Assembly: GCF_022846255.1 (NCBI RefSeq)
Contig: NZ_AP025682.1
Source of the DNA: Escherichia coli
GTDB lineage: Bacteria; Pseudomonadota; Gammaproteobacteria; Enterobacterales; Enterobacteriaceae
Reading direction: 5' to 3' (one strand)
Length of the DNA stretch: 64,000 nucleotides
Made by a program: the position numbers and the translations under genes. The notes beneath the pieces were generated by a model. The model made no database searches and was not told the DNA's origin. It saw only the letters and a program-made list of their open reading frames with translations. Each line of letters opens with the position of its first letter. Position 1 is the stretch's first letter. Shown one piece after another: positions 7,482 to 14,328 of this stretch.

Positions 7482-7580
7482 TTTACATCCCGGTAATGCA
7501 ACAAAAGTTAGAGCTTTTAAACGCTGCTACTATACGCGCGCGATTGAGGTTTGGGAATGAGGGCAAGTTAAGGGAGCGTA

Positions 7581-7616
7581 AAAATTTATGGGCCTGACTC
7601 GGCCCATAAATTTTTA
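7581..7616 (-). terminator. Rho-independent terminator after ybgE (end of cydAB-cydX-ybgE unit)
   Basis: tttatgggcc-tgactc-ggcccataaa hairpin flanked by A/T runs. Confidence 0.6.
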
Positions 7617-7630
7617 AAGAGAATTCTGAT

Positions 7631-7924
7631 TTAAAAGAAGAAGAAAATCAGCCCGACAATGAGAACAATATCGGCAAGCAATGGGCAAAAAATCCCTTGC
7701 CAGAGAACCTTCTGCGGACGAAAGCCCACGCCGTGAATCACACCAGCACAGACGGCCCACATAAGCAGTAAACCATGCCAGATTTCCAGTTCACTGGTCT
7801 TCGCGGCGAAACGTGATGGGTCCCAAAACATACATCCTGCTAACAGAAGTGCCATCACGAAGGAAAGCGCCCGCAGGGGGCGCTTGTCCATTACCGCATA
7901 CAAGGTTGCGATAATCTTACTCAT
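7631..7924 (-). CDS. ybgE: Small membrane protein YbgE (cyd operon)
   Basis: 97-aa hydrophobic ORF; its ATG overlaps the cydX stop. Confidence 0.85.
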   Translation of the reverse strand: MSKIIATLYAVMDKRPLRALSFVMALLLAGCMFWDPSRFAAKTSELEIWHGLLLMWAVCAGVIHGVGFRPQKVLWQGIFCPLLADIVLIVGLIFFFF

Positions 7925-8037
7925 CAGATGTCTTCTTGACCGGCTTTGCCTGATTCGACGTGCTCAAGCGCCAGCGCGGTGATTACCCCAAACGAACAGG
8001 CAAGAAGCGTTCCCAGAATCCATGCGAAATACCACAT
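7924..8037 (-). CDS. cydX: Cytochrome bd-I small subunit CydX (YbgT), 37 aa
   Basis: Hand translation of minus strand: MWYFAWILGTLLACSFGVITALALEHVESGKAGQEDI; below ORF-track length cutoff. Confidence 0.85.
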   Translation of the reverse strand: MWYFAWILGTLLACSFGVITALALEHVESGKAGQEDI

Positions 8038-8051
8038 TTTTAGCTCCTTAC

Positions 8052-9191
8052 TTAGTACAGAGAGTGGGTGTTACGTTCAATATCTTCTTTGGTGATACGA
8101 CCGAACATTTTCCAGTAACACCAGGCGGTGTAGAGCAGAATGATCGGTACCAGAACCACCGCAACCCAGGTCATGACGTTAAGCGTCAGCTGGCTGGAAG
8201 TTGCATCCCACATTGTCAGACTTGCGTTCATCATGGTGCTGGACGGCATCACAAACGGGAACATTGCGATACCGGCAGTCAGGATGATGCAGGCCAGCGT
8301 CAGGGAGGAGAACACAAACGCCCACGCGGCTTTATCCATACGTGCAGTCAGGATGGTCAGCAGCGGCAGAACCACACCCAGTGCCGGAATAGCCCACAGA
8401 ATTGGCGTGTTGTTGAAGTTAACCAGCCATGCGCCAGCTTCACGAACCACTTCTTTATTCAGCGGGTTAGAGGCTGCGTAATGGTCCATTGTCGATTTCA
8501 CGACATAACCATCGATACCGTACATCACCCATACGCCAGCCAGTGCGAAGCAGACCAGCGTCACCAGTGCCGCCACCTGAGCCGTTGCACGGGTACGCAG
8601 GTGCAGTTCGCCCACGGTACGCATTTGCAGATAGGTTGCGCCCTGAGTAATGATCATCCCTACGCTCACCACACCTGCCAGCAGGCCGAACGGGTTAAGC
8701 AGCTGGAAGAAGTTACCGGTGTAGTACAGACGCAGATATTCATCAACGTTGAATGGTACGCCCTGCAACAGGTTACCGAACGCTACACCAATCACCAGCG
8801 GCGGAACGAAGCTACCAATGAAGATGCCCCAGTCCCACATGTTACGCCAGCGGGTTTCTTCAATCTTGGAGCGGTAATCAAAACCGACCGGACGGAAGAA
8901 CAAAGACGCCAGCACGAGGATCATCGCCACATAGAAGCCGGAGAACGCAGCGGCATAGACCATCGGCCAGGCAGCAAACAGTGCGCCGCCTGCGGTGATC
9001 AGCCAAACCTGGTTACCGTCCCAGTGTGGTGCGATGGAGTTAATCATAATTCGACGCTCGGTGTCGTTACGACCGAGGAAACGGGTGAGCATGCCCACCC
9101 CCATGTCGAAACCGTCAGTGACTGCAAAACCAATCAGCAGAACGCCAACCAGCAGCCACCAGATAAAACGCAATACTTCATAATCGATCAT
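8052..9191 (-). CDS. cydB: Cytochrome bd-I ubiquinol oxidase subunit II
   Basis: 379-aa polytopic membrane ORF. Confidence 0.95.
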   Translation of the reverse strand: MIDYEVLRFIWWLLVGVLLIGFAVTDGFDMGVGMLTRFLGRNDTERRIMINSIAPHWDGNQVWLITAGGALFAAWPMVYAAAFSGFYVAMILVLASLFFRPVGFDYRSKIEETRWRNMWDWGIFIGSFVPPLVIGVAFGNLLQGVPFNVDEYLRLYYTGNFFQLLNPFGLLAGVVSVGMIITQGATYLQMRTVGELHLRTRATAQVAALVTLVCFALAGVWVMYGIDGYVVKSTMDHYAASNPLNKEVVREAGAWLVNFNNTPILWAIPALGVVLPLLTILTARMDKAAWAFVFSSLTLACIILTAGIAMFPFVMPSSTMMNASLTMWDATSSQLTLNVMTWVAVVLVPIILLYTAWCYWKMFGRITKEDIERNTHSLY

Positions 9192-9206: not shown

Positions 9207-10775
9207 TTAGCGTGCCGGCTGAGTAGTCGTGGAAGACTGCTCAAAGTGATAGCGACCGGTTTTCAGGCTGCTTGGGCCGAGGCGTGCAAACTTGAACATT
9301 AAGAACAATTCTGCCACCAGGAACAGGGTATACAGGCCGCAAATCAGCACCATTGAGAAGATGAGATCGCCTGCGGTCAGTGACGAGTTCGCCACAGCTG
9401 TCGGCAGCACTTCACCGATAGCCCACGGTTGGCGGCCATATTCAGCCACGAACCAGCCCGCTTCTACAGCAATCCACGGCAGCGGAATACCGTACAGCGC
9501 GGCGCGCAGCAGCCATTTTTTCTCGCCAATGCGGTTGCGGATGACACTCCAGAAAGAGAGCGCAATGATTGCCAGCAGCAGGAAGCCACACGCCACCATG
9601 ATACGGAACGCGAAGTACAGCGGCGCTACACGCGGAATGGAGTCTTTGGTTGCCTGTTGAATCTGAGCTTCAGTCGCATCAGCCACGTTTGGCGTATAGC
9701 GTTTCAGCAGCAGACCGTAACCGAGATCTTTCTTCATGCTATTGAACTGGTCACGAACGGCCTGGTCGGTAGAACCAGAACGCAGTTGTTCGAGCAGAGA
9801 GTACGCCTTCATCCCGTTACGAATGCGTTCTTCATGCTGCACCATCAGTTCTTTCAGGCCGATAACTGGAGTATCCACGGAACGCGTTGCAATGATGCCC
9901 AGCGCGTAAGGGATCTGGATCGCAAATTTGTTCGTCTCCTCTTCCTGATCAGGAATGCCGAACAGAGTAAAGGCAGCAGGTGCAGGTTGCGTTTCCCACT
10001 CGGCTTCGATAGCAGCCAGTTTGGTTTTCTGCACGTCGCCCATTTCGTAACCGGATTCATCACCCAGAACAATAACAGACAGAACGGCAGCCATACCGAA
10101 GCTGGCAGCGATAGCAAAGGAGCGTTTAGCGAAGGCGAAGTCACGACCTTTCAGCATATACCATGCGCTGATACCGAGGATGAACATCGCGCCAGTCACA
10201 TAACCAGAAGCTACGGTGTGAACGAATTTCACCTGAGCAACCGGGTTAAGCACCAGCTCGGAGAAGCTCACCATCTCCATACGCATAGTTTCAAAGTTGA
10301 AATCGGACGCGATTGGGTTTTGCATCCAGCCGTTTGCAACCAGAATCCACAGTGCGGACAGGTTTGAACCGAGCGCCACCAGCCAGGTGACACACATATG
10401 CTGAACTTTACCCAGACGATCCCAACCGAAGAAGAACAGACCTACAAAGGTGGATTCGAGGAAGAAGGCCATCAGACCTTCGATTGCCAGCGGCGCACCG
10501 AAGATATCCCCTACATAGTGGGAATAGTAAGACCAGTTAGTCCCGAACTGGAACTCCATGGTCAGACCGGTAGCCACACCCAGAGCAAAGTTGATACCAA
10601 ACAACTTGCCCCAGAACTTGGTCATATCTTTATAAATCTGTTTGCCGGAAAGGACGTAGACCGTTTCCATAATGGCCAGCAGGAACGCCATACCGAGCGT
10701 CAGTGGCACAAAAAGGAAGTGGTACATCGCGGTCAAGGCAAACTGTAAGCGCGACAGTTCGACTATATCTAACAT
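9207..10775 (-). CDS. cydA: Cytochrome bd-I ubiquinol oxidase subunit I
   Basis: Translation [20 protein letters not shown]...; start taken at second Met of track ORF (522 aa). Confidence 0.95.
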
Positions 10776-11450
10776 CATGACTCCTTGCTCATCGCATGAA
10801 GACTCCGAGAGTGAACCCCGTTAGAAAGGGTCACACGCATGCCCCAATACAAAATTATTTGCTCGCCTCTATCGTTGCCATTTCATCAAAAGAGGAAAAG
10901 ACAATGATAAAAAAGTTACAAATGTGTTAATGAATAAACCAAATTGATCCCGTAATTATATTACGCCGCAAAATCCTTACAATAAACAGGTTTTTATTGA
11001 GCAAATTTGCATTTTTCGACAGTGATCAATTTATAGCGAAATTGTCACGATCTCACCAATTTGATCTACAACAATTTATCGTGTTTTGCAGATTTTTTTC
11101 AAGAATTAAAAATTGATTTATATCAAAATCAACCACATATGTTAATTATGTGTGAATCATGAGCCACTGGTAACTTTATTGTTAATTTATTGTAACAAAA
11201 CAGCACGGTAAATTACCCACATGGAAATATATAGATAAAAAACCAGTATTTTATTTAACAAAGCCGCTTTATCGACTTTTTATAATACTAATTAGTTAGA
11301 GTAGCTACTTTATTGCCATTTTACATAACATATTTTTATCAACGTTAATTGATTGTTGTCTTTATGAGCAACGTACTGTAAATCCGTCACTTATTGTTTC
11401 ATTGGTAATAATCACAAGAAGAAATAGATACCTTAGGTATAGTCAGATGG
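10776..11450. promoter_or_regulatory. AT-rich region upstream of cydA; probably includes the cydAB promoter/regulatory region, extent uncertain
   Basis: Non-coding AT-rich DNA immediately 5' of cydA; cydAB is known to have a long complex upstream control region. Confidence 0.4.
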
Positions 11451-12103
11451 AACAAGGATTTTTAAAATAAAATATATATGGTATTAATATTTCCCGATCT
11501 GTATTCAATGATTCGCTCAAAGATTGAAAATCAAGAGAAATTGTTATAGCAGTGATACGAAACAACAAAACGGAATGATTGCCAGCCGTTAGAAAACACC
11601 GGACACTCTCGTGTAAAAAGCTACCCTGTCTATGGATATAGCGATATCCACTCATCAAGCGTGGACTGAATGATATTCAGCTCCATATGGGCGGAAACCT
11701 GGAGGATAAATACGATTTCGCCGTTGGAATCAAGGTTGTTCTGCAATATCTACCAGACTGCTTCAATTTATCTGTTTTGGCAGTGCAATAATCTTAATTT
11801 AACTATTTGAAGATGATGATATTGTCAGATGCCAGAAATTTAGTAATCTGGAGAACCGTGTCTATGATCACTAAATATTAAAGTAATAGTCGATAATTCA
11901 GTAGCACATCGGGTAATATAACGTATTGATACATAATCATATTAAAAAATTCGTGATTAAATAACATAAGAATATGTTTTATTATCATTAAAAAACCTTC
12001 TATTTCCATCATCCTTAAGATAATAAAACAGCGAATGATGGATAACTTGACCAGAAAAACAAGCAAGCATATAAAATTAAAAAATATGATTCCACTTTCA
12101 TTT

Positions 12104-13219
12104 TTATAAAATGGCATCGTGAAGAGCGAGTTGATAATGCTGCAATGCATCAGCGTCCTGTCCAGCAGTTTCATAAATTTTGGCAATGTTATAATAGGAG
12201 TTAGCGCGCGTTGTCGCCGCATTTACCCCACTCGCTAACGAGATCGCTTTACGATTTGCCCAAATTGCTTCCGCTATGTTGCCATTTTTCTGATACGCCA
12301 GACCCAGGTTACTAAATGCCTGTCCGTAATTGCCGTCTAATTCTGTTGCCTGTTGGAAGAGTTGAATGGCTTGCTCAAGTTGACCGGTTTTATAAACAGC
12401 TTCACCTTCGCGATTATATTTTCTTGCCAGTTGAGTATCTCCACTGTTTTGCATCGCAGGCGAAGCCGGAGCTGAAGAGTCCGTCGCAGGCATTATCACA
12501 GTGGCTAAATCCCTGACGTCTAATGTGGTGTCGTTAAAATTGGCGCTGGTAACAGAGTTGATATCTTCAAACTCGCCGTTTGGATTGAGTTTAAACACGG
12601 TCCAGATGTTCCCTCGTTTTCCAGCAGGGACACTATAACTACGTACCAGGGAGCTCCCTACATAAACAAACACTCTTGCCTTACTGGCAGAGAGATAATT
12701 ACTGTTGGGCAACCCTTTATTGCTATAGTCCTGCACGGCATAGATGTAACTTTCACCAAAATGCTTTTTGCTGATAGTGACAGTTTCTGGTCCATAGCTA
12801 TCCGTATCATCAACATCCAGATTGGCATCAGTTCCCTCTTTACTATCAAAATAGATATGTCCGCCAGGGAAGATCAAATGCGAATCAAGATCAAAAGGCT
12901 TTTCGCCCCAGCTCAAAACTACACGCATGCCATCCAGATTCGTCATCACCGGACTGATAGCATAAGTCATGCCAGCGCACGGACATTTGACCACCAGATT
13001 GGAATACCCCTCTTTTTTGACGATTAATAGAGCATCTTTATTATCAGCAAATGAAGTCCCCAAACTAATGCTGCCCGAAGTATTTGTGGTTCCAGAAACA
13101 GATTGTGCGCCATTGCGTTGCAGCGTCATCGATGCTCCTTCAATGCGTTTATCTTTCACTGTCGCACTTAAAATATCGATATTTACATCGGCCGCATAAA
13201 CGTCCGAATTTATACCCAT
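12104..13219 (-). CDS. Hypothetical protein, probably exported: N-terminal beta-rich region (PEGA/carboxypeptidase-regulatory-like, then a region with DLDSHL and LDVDDTDSYGPE motifs), low-complexity linker, C-terminal TPR repeats. Possible N-terminal extension to 13267 with no canonical start
   Basis: 371-aa ORF in track; TPR-like helical repeats near C-terminus (AFSNLGLAYQKNGNIAEAI..., YYNIAKIYETAGQDADAL); in-frame upstream codons encode a signal-peptide-like KKKIVLPVALALMGINSDVYA-ADV. Confidence 0.7.
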   Translation of the reverse strand: MGINSDVYAADVNIDILSATVKDKRIEGASMTLQRNGAQSVSGTTNTSGSISLGTSFADNKDALLIVKKEGYSNLVVKCPCAGMTYAISPVMTNLDGMRVVLSWGEKPFDLDSHLIFPGGHIYFDSKEGTDANLDVDDTDSYGPETVTISKKHFGESYIYAVQDYSNKGLPNSNYLSASKARVFVYVGSSLVRSYSVPAGKRGNIWTVFKLNPNGEFEDINSVTSANFNDTTLDVRDLATVIMPATDSSAPASPAMQNSGDTQLARKYNREGEAVYKTGQLEQAIQLFQQATELDGNYGQAFSNLGLAYQKNGNIAEAIWANRKAISLASGVNAATTRANSYYNIAKIYETAGQDADALQHYQLALHDAIL

Positions 13220-13357
13220 CAGGGCCAGAGCAACCGGCAGAACAATTTTCTTCTTGTATAAATGCTTTTACAGAACGGAGAGGGGATATTTTGCCGGGCA
13301 TTATTGCGCAGAAGATGGGAAAAAAGCAGTGGGCAAACTTTTCAGATTAGTGCCCGA

Positions 13358-13458
13358 ATAAAAAAGGCCATCATAAGATGGCCAACCATGTCGAAACCGA
13401 CAGCCCTTCGCCCCTCCTGTAGAGGGAAGCGGCGAGGGCTATTTCTTATTACAGATAT
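13358..13458 (-). ncRNA. sdhX: sucD 3'-UTR, expected position of the 3'-UTR-derived sRNA SdhX (RybD), ending at the sucD terminator
   Basis: Region directly 3' of sucD stop on minus strand, ending in hairpin ggccatc-ataa-gatggcc plus U-run (13358-13383); SdhX is known to derive from the sucD 3'-UTR. The sRNA sequence itself was not checked from memory. Confidence 0.55.
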
Positions 13459-14328
13459 TTATTTCAGAACAGTTTTCAGTGCTTCACCGATATCCGCCAG
13501 GCTGCGAACGGTTTTCACGCCTGCGGCTTCCAGAGCAGCGAATTTCTCATCCGCAGTCCCTTTACCACCGGCAATGATCGCACCTGCGTGACCCATACGT
13601 TTGCCTTTCGGCGCAGTCACACCAGCGATGTAACCCACAACTGGCTTGGTAACGTGCTCCTTGATGTACGCCGCTGCTTCTTCTTCAGCGCTACCGCCGA
13701 TCTCACCGATCATCACGATCGCTTCGGTCTGCGGATCTTTTTCGAACATTTCGAGGATGTCGATAAAGTTAGAACCAGGGATCGGGTCGCCGCCGATACC
13801 GACACAGGTCGACTGACCGAAACCGTAATCCGTGGTCTGTTTAACCGCTTCATAGGTCAGCGTACCGGAACGGGAAACGATACCCACTTTACCCGGTTTG
13901 TGAATGTGACCCGGCTGGATACCGATTTTGCATTCCCCCGGGGTGATAACGCCTGGGCAGTTCGGGCCGATCATACGAACGCCTGCTTCATCCAGTTTCA
14001 CTTTCACCGTCAGCATATCCAGCGTCGGGATGCCTTCAGTGATGGTGATAATCAGTTTGATGCCTGCATCGATAGCTTCCAGAATGGAGTCTTTGCAGAA
14101 CGGTGCTGGTACGTAGATAACAGAGGCGGTAGCGCCAGTAGCAGCAACAGCTTCACGCACGGTGTTGAACACCGGCAGGCCGAGGTGGGTAGTACCGCCT
14201 TTACCTGGGGTTACGCCGCCAACCATTTTAGTGCCGTATGCAATGGCCTGCTCTGAGTGGAAAGTCCCCTGGCTACCGGTAAAGCCCTGGCAGATAACCT
14301 TGGTGTTTTTATCAATTAAAATGGACAT
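13459..14328 (-). CDS. sucD: Succinyl-CoA synthetase alpha subunit
   Basis: 289-aa [48 protein letters not shown]. Confidence 0.95.

Follow-up and report, generated by a model that had tools for sequence, protein, structure and literature searches.

The question raised by this locus is what occupies the roughly 1.3 kb between cydA and its upstream neighbour, and why this DNA is so poor in G and C. The window, that is the whole stretch of 64,000 nucleotides of Escherichia coli DNA analyzed (contig NZ_AP025682.1), carries in minus-strand order cydB (8052-9191), cydA (9207-10778), the interval (10779-12103), a gene encoding a TPR protein (12104-13219) and sucD (13459-14328), all four genes being on the minus strand. 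A first, sequence-only reading had named cydA and the TPR gene as flanks, both at the positions found here, and had described the interval as the most AT-rich and ORF-poor DNA of the window. Measurement agrees with this description. The GC content is 31.9% in the interval versus 51.3% in the whole window, the lowest-GC stretch of the window falls in it at the 300, 500 and 1325 bp scales, and in 1325-bp windows it scores 0.31 versus a mean of 0.514 (sd 0.042) and a runner-up of 0.416. The A/T tracts singled out by eye are among 14 A/T runs of at least 5 bases. A GC-richer patch had also been noticed, and it is present as well: GC is 0.46 in 11598-11721 and 0.40 in 11722-11788, with values of 26-30% on either side (11186-11597 and 11789-12108). 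The longest open frames of the interval encode 114 aa (overlapping the end of the TPR gene) and 71 aa. The first is not conserved in ST131, the second acquires stops in strain 536 and a frameshift in ST131, and no ORF of the interval was found conserved among sister alleles. Two short frames predicted in the GC-richer patch do exist, a plus-strand ORF of 46 aa from the ATG at 11670 and a minus-strand frame ending ...NNLDSNGEIVFILQVSAHMELNIIQSTLDEWISLYP* (ORF 11630-11746). The same DNA is found in other strains, 99.8% identical over the interval in strain 2A and 98.5% in strain 536. The evidence presented below makes it very probable that the 1.3 kb combines the cydAB control region with the leftovers of a decayed island, three AT-rich spacers having been joined by deletions.

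The part nearest to cydA had been attributed to the multi-promoter control region of cydAB, and its FNR boxes, P1-like promoter, ArcA-type boxes and conservation across genera all point the same way. Judged by its sequence, the segment from 10779 to about 11449 is a working cydAB control region. Its alignment with K-12 covers only the first 379-490 bp or so, at 79-81% identity, and the remainder of the interval has no K-12 counterpart; the sequence-only reading, which an alignment of the full 1.3 kb to K-12 would have refuted, thus stands on this point. With Pseudocitrobacter and Enterobacter, identity is 71-73% over about 370-410 bp. A six-way alignment of the region upstream of cydA (window, ST131, O157, K-12, Pseudocitrobacter and Enterobacter sp.) displays an invariant proximal leader of 74 bp, a patch of about 60 bp that differs in every lineage, and blocks strongly conserved out to about -380. 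The leader (10779-10849, minus strand), which includes the ribosome-binding site, is identical in K-12, O157, ST131 and the window. The hypervariable patch (10850-10912, minus strand, about -75 to -135) defies alignment, whether the K-12 type is compared with the B2/O157 type or one genus with another.

Upstream of this patch, a promoter scan detected the minus-strand element TTGTAA-16-TATAAT (10955-10982, 10 of 12 consensus matches), located in a block that E. coli alleles share with Pseudocitrobacter and Enterobacter; this element could be a downstream promoter of cydA. The putative core of promoter P1 was recognized by motif scan and conservation at 11061-11126 on the minus strand. Here a -35/-10 pair of P1 type (TTGAAA/TAAATT, 11102-11073) is flanked by two FNR boxes whose centres are 52 bp apart. 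One of them, TTGATTTATATCAA at 11113-11126, is a perfect TTGAT-N4-ATCAA and the only perfect consensus in the 64-kb window; the other, TTGATCTACAACAA at 11061-11074, has one mismatch. The latter presumably corresponds to the FNR site at -1.5 of P1. Both this -1.5 site and the K-12 coordinate of P1 are said to go back to the work of Cotter and colleagues. An FNR site of K-12 cydAB is listed at -53.5 (PMC3688515, Table 1), and with this published position transcription from P1 would begin near 11066, some 289 nt before the ATG. Promoter-like sites as a class were not significantly more frequent in the interval than in shuffled sequences.

Boxes of the ArcA type were searched with the direct-repeat consensus TGTTAA-N5-TGTTA, allowing at most one mismatch. 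Three such motif matches were found in the interval, on the plus strand TGTTAATTATGTGTGA (11140-11155) and TGTTAATTTATTGTAA (11180-11195), which together span 11140-11195, and a third one at 11326-11341, or -558 from the ATG. Dinucleotide shuffles of the interval predict 0.09 boxes, and three were reached in none of 300 shuffles. Weaker matches follow at 11343-11358 and at 11542. A box of this type is also found at -581 in K-12, in DNA that does not align with the window, and at -611 in Enterobacter. This similar distance (-558, -581, -611) suggests that the control region may functionally reach about 11360-11449, where ArcA would bind in the window too. Such an extent agrees with what is published for K-12, where three regions bound by ArcA have been mapped upstream of cydA and where ArcA is proposed to lift repression by H-NS (PMC3798270, PMC3688515). 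H-NS binding over the interval is plausible in view of its composition (GC 0.28-0.34) and of the published K-12 data. The high-affinity motif TCGATAAATT has a single 9/10 match in the interval, at 11073-11082 in the -10 region of P1, and its matches are not enriched across the window. Taken together, the region would comprise the leader, a P1-type promoter between two FNR boxes, and ArcA-type boxes as far upstream as about -560. If cydAB behaves here as in K-12, H-NS and FNR would repress it, and ArcA-P would lift this repression under microaerobiosis. The upstream half of this region (11186-11449) has no K-12 homologue. It is 89-91% identical in the strains carrying a glm island, O157 and FUJ80154, in which it separates cydA from the first island gene.

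These strains give access to the origin of the distal half. The CydA protein is identical in all strains compared, and the DNA between cydA and sucD varies in content. K-12 carries mngR-mngA-mngB, O157:H7 a methylaspartate (glm) island of about 13 kb, and FUJ80154 an island of about 24 kb combining glm, hut and RtcB. ST131-type strains possess the same AT-rich DNA as the window together with a full-length TPR gene and mngBAR, and strain 536 resembles the window. From the cydA side, the FUJ80154 island comprises two hypothetical genes, glmS/L/E, the methylaspartate ammonia-lyase gene and further genes through LysR, then hutH-G-I-D-permease-hutU, and finally RtcB.

The sequence-only reading had proposed that the GC-richer patch might be a remnant of a deleted gene. 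It consists in fact of two fused gene fragments, from glmS and hutU, at the joint of a deletion of about 18.5 kb. When 11416-12103 was searched with high sensitivity in all E. coli genomes (5,426 complete genomes), about 1100 genomes with the same DNA were returned. A further 87 gave a match of about 82% between 11722-11787 and the 5' end of a hutU gene located in the same hotspot. The window was then compared pairwise with the FUJ80154 island by blastn, tblastn and nhmmer. Four matches were obtained, all on the same strand and in the same order, between cydA and sucD in FUJ80154. In coordinates of that locus (L005), window 10779-11440 corresponds to 9945-10607, the cydA-side spacer (89%); 11653-11733 to 12974-13060, within glmS (70%); 11722-11787 to 31603-31668, within hutU; and 11787-12075 to 31973-32253.

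The glmS remnant (methylaspartate mutase S subunit, codons ~53-107) occupies 11598-11733 on the plus strand. It was detected by blastn (70% over 87 nt, E 5e-7), by tblastn (51% over 35 aa, E 9e-6) and by nhmmer against the O157 glmS (E 8e-9). The nucleotide match begins at 11621/11653 (codons ~60-107), the protein match reaches back to codon 53 at 11598, and the piece is disrupted by one frameshift and one in-frame stop. The hutU remnant (urocanate hydratase, codons 23-44) occupies 11722-11788 on the minus strand and is 81.8% identical over 66 nt in the search of the 5,426 genomes, with E values of 9e-12 in the pairwise search and 6e-8 by nhmmer. Its translation, LHCQNR*IEAVW*ILQNNLD, contains two in-frame stops relative to the intact LHCKNWQIEAAYRMLQNNLD. 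Of the short frames mentioned above, the minus-strand one starts in the old hutU frame (...LQNNLD), and a plus-strand ORF at 11687 (MGGNL...) starts in the old glmS frame. Alignment of both parental sequences places the joint at 11715-11735, where the glmS and hutU sides share an imperfect microhomology of about 20 bp (TTCGC..CGT.GGAA.CAA). The DNA lost at this joint is the equivalent of L005 13060 to 31603. As a separate remark, the glmS match is short, and its E values of about 1e-6 to 1e-8 come from pairwise searches only.

Beyond the hutU stump, about 300 bp are absent at 11788, namely hutU codons 1-22 and the DNA just upstream of hutU. The remaining part, 11789-12108, is a relic of the AT-rich spacer located upstream of hutU, between hutU and RtcB in FUJ80154: blastn aligns 11787-12075 with it at 64% over 292 nt (E 6e-23), nhmmer gives E 6.5e-15, and the alignment can be extended to 12108. 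The spacer at 11450-11597 (GC 0.30) has no similarity to the island, K-12 or ST131 by nhmmer, blastn, tblastn or Smith-Waterman, the Smith-Waterman score being 18 versus 16.5 +/- 2.3 for shuffles. An assignment of this spacer to glmS, on the resemblance of 'EIVIAVI' to the GlmS 'LVIGVI', was rejected as not significant. Since these ~150 bp match nothing, the reconstruction is incomplete; and since the remnants are only 64-82% identical to the FUJ80154 island, the ancestor was a diverged version of it.

In outline, the ancestral island would have read cydA-hypA-hypB-glmSLE-...-hutHGI-hutD-permease-hutU-RtcB, adjoining the TPR gene. Illegitimate recombination between the imperfect ~20-bp repeats would have removed about 18.5 kb, from inside glmS to inside hutU, and smaller deletions would have taken the 5' end of hutU, most of RtcB and the 3' end of the TPR gene. 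What was left would be about 190 bp of broken, AT-drifting coding sequence, seen today as the GC-richer patch, and the old hutU-upstream spacer. A scan of genome contigs bearing the TPR protein recovered no genome in which the TPR gene adjoins an intact hut island.

This sequence of events also explains the base composition. The homologues of the spacers in intact islands have 29-33% GC (0.287 for the FUJ80154 homologue of 11789-12108), and the island DNA lost between them roughly 49%. The interval is thus AT-rich because three AT-rich spacers became joined when the intervening coding DNA was lost and, as far as these comparisons indicate, its AT-richness is inherited. GC has fallen in both coding stumps, from 57 to 45% in one and from 50 to 41% in the other, and 8 of the 12 substitutions in the hutU stump go from GC to AT.

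The other end of the interval was examined by comparing the TPR gene (12104-13219, minus strand) with ST131-type strains, and it proved to be damaged. In both the window and strain 536, AAG has replaced the ancestral ATG; the annotated product has 371 aa and, as a result of this change of start codon, lacks the signal peptide MKKIVLPVALAL... The C-terminal repeat is truncated, LHDAIL* standing in its place. A deletion of 260 bp relative to ST131-type strains, with its joint at 12126, took the last 21 TPR codons, the terminator hairpin (GTGGGCATC-TGAT-GATGCCCAC) and 195 bp of spacer that included a weak RtcB-like fragment. The dN/dS of about 0.2 implies that the gene was under selection, and functional, for most of its history. 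Pectobacterium, Enterobacter sp. BIGb0383 and Pseudocitrobacter likewise have the TPR gene in the gap from sucD to cydA, and this shared synteny makes it an old resident of the interval.

Another suggestion was that the distal part could be the 3'-UTR of the TPR gene. It does lie directly downstream of the TPR stop codon and in the same orientation; now that the terminator is missing, transcripts of the gene would indeed run into it. It can hardly be a normal 3'-UTR, however: the native 3' end and terminator hairpin that ST131-type strains retain are deleted in the window, the gene is probably dying, as its AAG start codon and lost signal peptide indicate, and 11789-12108 derives from hutU-upstream rather than TPR-associated DNA. 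A 3'-UTR role is accordingly judged very improbable.

Still less credit is given to a further proposal, that an unannotated gene for a small RNA or small protein lies in the distal part. In its favor, short ORFs of 34-46 codons in 11630-11810 are open in four alleles, and a minus-strand hairpin at 11190-11255 folds better than shuffled sequences (z = -3.3). These frames nevertheless sit in the gene remnants, one of them merely continuing the old glmS frame, and the 71-aa and 114-aa ORFs are broken in sister alleles. When RNA folding was scored in sliding windows along each strand, this hairpin was the only outlier by z-score; the O157 and FUJ80154 alleles no longer form it, and 536 and ST131 form a weaker version. 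Rfam produced zero matches in the interval even at E up to 5, and no terminator-like site was detected on either strand of 10779-12103. The small-RNA locus that had been envisaged is therefore left without Rfam match, terminator or conserved structure.

The rejected ALTERNATIVES comprise a small RNA, small proteins and a mobile element. The hairpin was set aside as a small RNA, being not conserved and devoid of a U-tract, and a permissive Rfam search over 10500-13600 gave only chance-level eukaryotic matches, all outside the interval. A protein-coding gene was dismissed on the broken 71-aa and 114-aa ORFs (536 or ST131) and on the overlap of the shorter ORFs with gene remnants. For a mobile element (IS, phage or plasmid relic), there was no phage match, and the repeat search found only short two-copy matches at chance level. 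In the plasmid collection, three E. coli entries classified as plasmids were all that matched, and their sizes are about 4.9 Mb for two of them and 730 kb for the third.

The distribution of these sequences was followed in 5,426 complete genomes, all but one of which match the first part of the interval; at least 80% of the interval is held by only 1106. O157-type genomes match the first 637 bp at about 91%, and K-12-type genomes the first ~375 bp at about 80%. Genome counts are 1105 for the scar, 1112 for the TPR gene and 1136 for the intact glm island; scar/TPR and glm-island genomes roughly sum to the ~2229 genomes with a non-K-12 haplotype upstream of cydA. This dimorphism divides the complete genomes into about 41% and 59%, and all genomes with a present or past glm/hut island have the control-region haplotype of the window. 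O157 has its own scars of the same island, fragments of hutH and RtcB between LysR and sucD. Because the O157 and B2 scars are separate, the large island must have been ancestral to both and have decayed independently.

A regulatory reading of the whole 1.3 kb has to be weighed against this history. The interval, scar included, could be a lineage-specific extension of the cydAB control region by which bd-I is regulated differently in B2, the extra AT-rich DNA nucleating or extending an H-NS filament or carrying distal promoters or ArcA sites. The low GC of both AT-rich segments would suit such a role, as would the enrichment of ArcA-type boxes with its weaker match at 11542, and H-NS repression with ArcA anti-repression is published for K-12 cydAB (PMC3798270). 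The deletion of the TPR terminator moreover leaves nothing to insulate cydA from upstream transcription, and the scar has been retained in about 1100 genomes of two deep sub-lineages, at 92-99% identity; this retention could reflect constraint rather than the mere absence of deletion. Yet in O157-type strains, which have the same proximal haplotype, cydA operates with about 800 bp of spacer only and no scar, and no strong ArcA or FNR motif is located beyond 11360. Between the 536-like and ST131-like B2 alleles, divergence amounts to 2-8% in the scar and to 0.3% in cydA (dS 0.01-0.02); the scar thus diverges at least as much as synonymous sites of cydA, and constraint on it is not apparent. The extension is on this balance unlikely. 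The reading of the distal half as a deletion scar is retained, most likely without any function of its own; at most, it would be passively coated by H-NS and transcribed by read-through from the terminator-less TPR pseudogene.

Nothing in this locus is categorically new: its proximal half represents a divergent allele of the well-studied control region of cydAB, and its distal half a scar left by deletions and gene decay. Ordinary genome decay, and not a new element, accounts for the most AT-rich stretch of the window, so that the outcome is mostly a clean negative. It nevertheless documents the history of the sucD-cydA hotspot, in which a glm + hut + RtcB island beside an old TPR gene decayed independently in B2 and in O157. 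The B2 allele adds about 650 bp of AT-rich relic, and no terminator stands between this relic and the sdh-suc operon with the TPR pseudogene. The only thread of wider interest is whether the island-linked haplotype changes the expression of cytochrome bd-I in ExPEC/EHEC. Cytochrome bd-I matters for fitness in the gut and urinary tract. If the haplotype were a horizontally switched regulatory allele giving bd-I another oxygen-response or H-NS set-point in ExPEC/EHEC, a conjecture considered unlikely, the shift would touch an enzyme important in host colonisation.

These two halves can be compared with known systems. The closest one for the proximal half is the multi-promoter cydAB region of K-12, controlled by FNR, ArcA and H-NS (Cotter et al. 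1997 and Govantes et al. 2000, as cited in PMC3798270 and PMC3688515). The window shares with it the position directly upstream of cydA, the identical 74-bp leader, AT-richness, the spacing of the two FNR boxes, a P1-like promoter at about the same 289 nt before the ATG, and an ArcA-type box near -560 to -580 in both alleles. It departs from K-12 by an identity of ~80% over about 380-490 bp and unalignable DNA beyond, by the replacement of the 60-bp leader patch, and by 11186-11449, which belongs to the island-associated haplotype. In the literature searched, no paper on cydA promoter alleles was found, and neither was a description of the glmS-hutU fusion scar, present with the TPR gene in about 1100 genomes. 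The distal half resembles the pseudogene and deletion scars known at E. coli integration hotspots in its frame-disrupted glmS and hutU fragments, its collinear intact island, the microhomology at its joint and its GC-to-AT drift. It is also similar to H-NS-bound, xenogeneically silenced DNA, the fate that the sequence-only reading had envisaged, by its GC content of 26-34%, its origin in a horizontally acquired island and its proximity to a promoter repressed by H-NS in K-12; unlike such DNA, the scar has no gene left to silence. Finally, the K-12 versus island-type dimorphism upstream of cydA is an instance of the switched intergenic regions, or horizontal regulatory switching, of Oren et al. 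2014, in the terms in which Thorpe et al. 2018 (PMC5890482) cite that work. As in the cases outlined there, an invariant core gene is preceded by two deeply divergent upstream regions, each tied to different accessory DNA; unlike in that outline, the switch at cydA is partial, and its functional blocks have been retained.

The gene of the TPR protein (12104-13219, minus strand), which lies between the AT-rich interval and sucD, has been damaged at both ends in the window. Its ancestral ATG start has become AAG, in the window (13180-13260) as well as in strain 536, and the signal peptide is therefore lost. At the other end (12104-12126), the last 21 codons and the terminator have been removed by a 260-bp deletion. 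A version of 397 aa is retained in ST131-type strains (L006, an ST131-type locus, 7540-8733). Despite this damage, dN/dS between alleles is about 0.2. Homologues of the protein (64-76% identity) are found between sucD and cydA in several genera of Enterobacterales, at loci of Pseudocitrobacter, Enterobacter sp. BIGb0383 and Pectobacterium (L008, L009, L010 and L011), and remoter ones occur in Pseudomonas, Bacteroidota and Helicobacter. No Pfam domain was detected in the N-terminal ~250 residues.

The history of this allele (12127-13219) appears to be composite. No match of at least 99% was found among complete E. coli genomes, the best covering 98% of the query at 98.0% identity. Between the window and strain 2A, identity is 99.8% in the adjacent spacer but only 97.5% in the TPR gene. 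In the interior of the gene, the window shows 39 differences from 536 and fewer, 30, from ST131. Taken together, these sequence comparisons suggest a recombinant or mosaic allele.

The 5' leader of cydA is conserved except for a patch of ~60 bp (10850-10912, about -75 to -135). The K-12-type and island-type alleles of this patch are unalignable and it differs in each genus compared, whereas the flanking blocks are 90-100% conserved. Further upstream, direct-repeat boxes of the ArcA type, identified by motif only, are located at similar distances from the cydA ATG in three sequences that share no alignable homology: at -558 in the window (11326-11341), -581 in K-12 (L002) and -611 in Enterobacter (L009). 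A hairpin at 11190-11255 (minus strand; -22.7 kcal/mol, z = -3.3) folds more stably than its shuffles; it is weaker in 536 and ST131, is missing from the O157 and FUJ80154 alleles, and probably arose by chance.

In O157:H7, the spacer that separates the glm island from sucD (LysR-sucD, L041 14235-14900) contains a hutH fragment and a fragment of the RtcB 3' end; here the same hut-RtcB segment has left a deletion scar that arose independently. Two hypothetical genes, of 314 and 140 aa, stand at the glm island's cydA end (FUJ80154, L005 10747-12194; O157, L041 1250-2698), and neither matches any NCBIfam family.

On the sucD side, homology of the window to ST131 ends at 13383. The ~100 nt located 3' of sucD (13358-13458, minus strand), 97% conserved in O157 and FUJ80154, end in a hairpin followed by a T-run (GGCCATC-TTAT-GATGGCC, 13383-13366, minus strand), and the deletion that removed mngRAB therefore ends at this sucD-downstream terminator. 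A search of Rfam returned no SdhX match at 13358-13458; by its position, the stretch is presumably the 3'-UTR sRNA SdhX.
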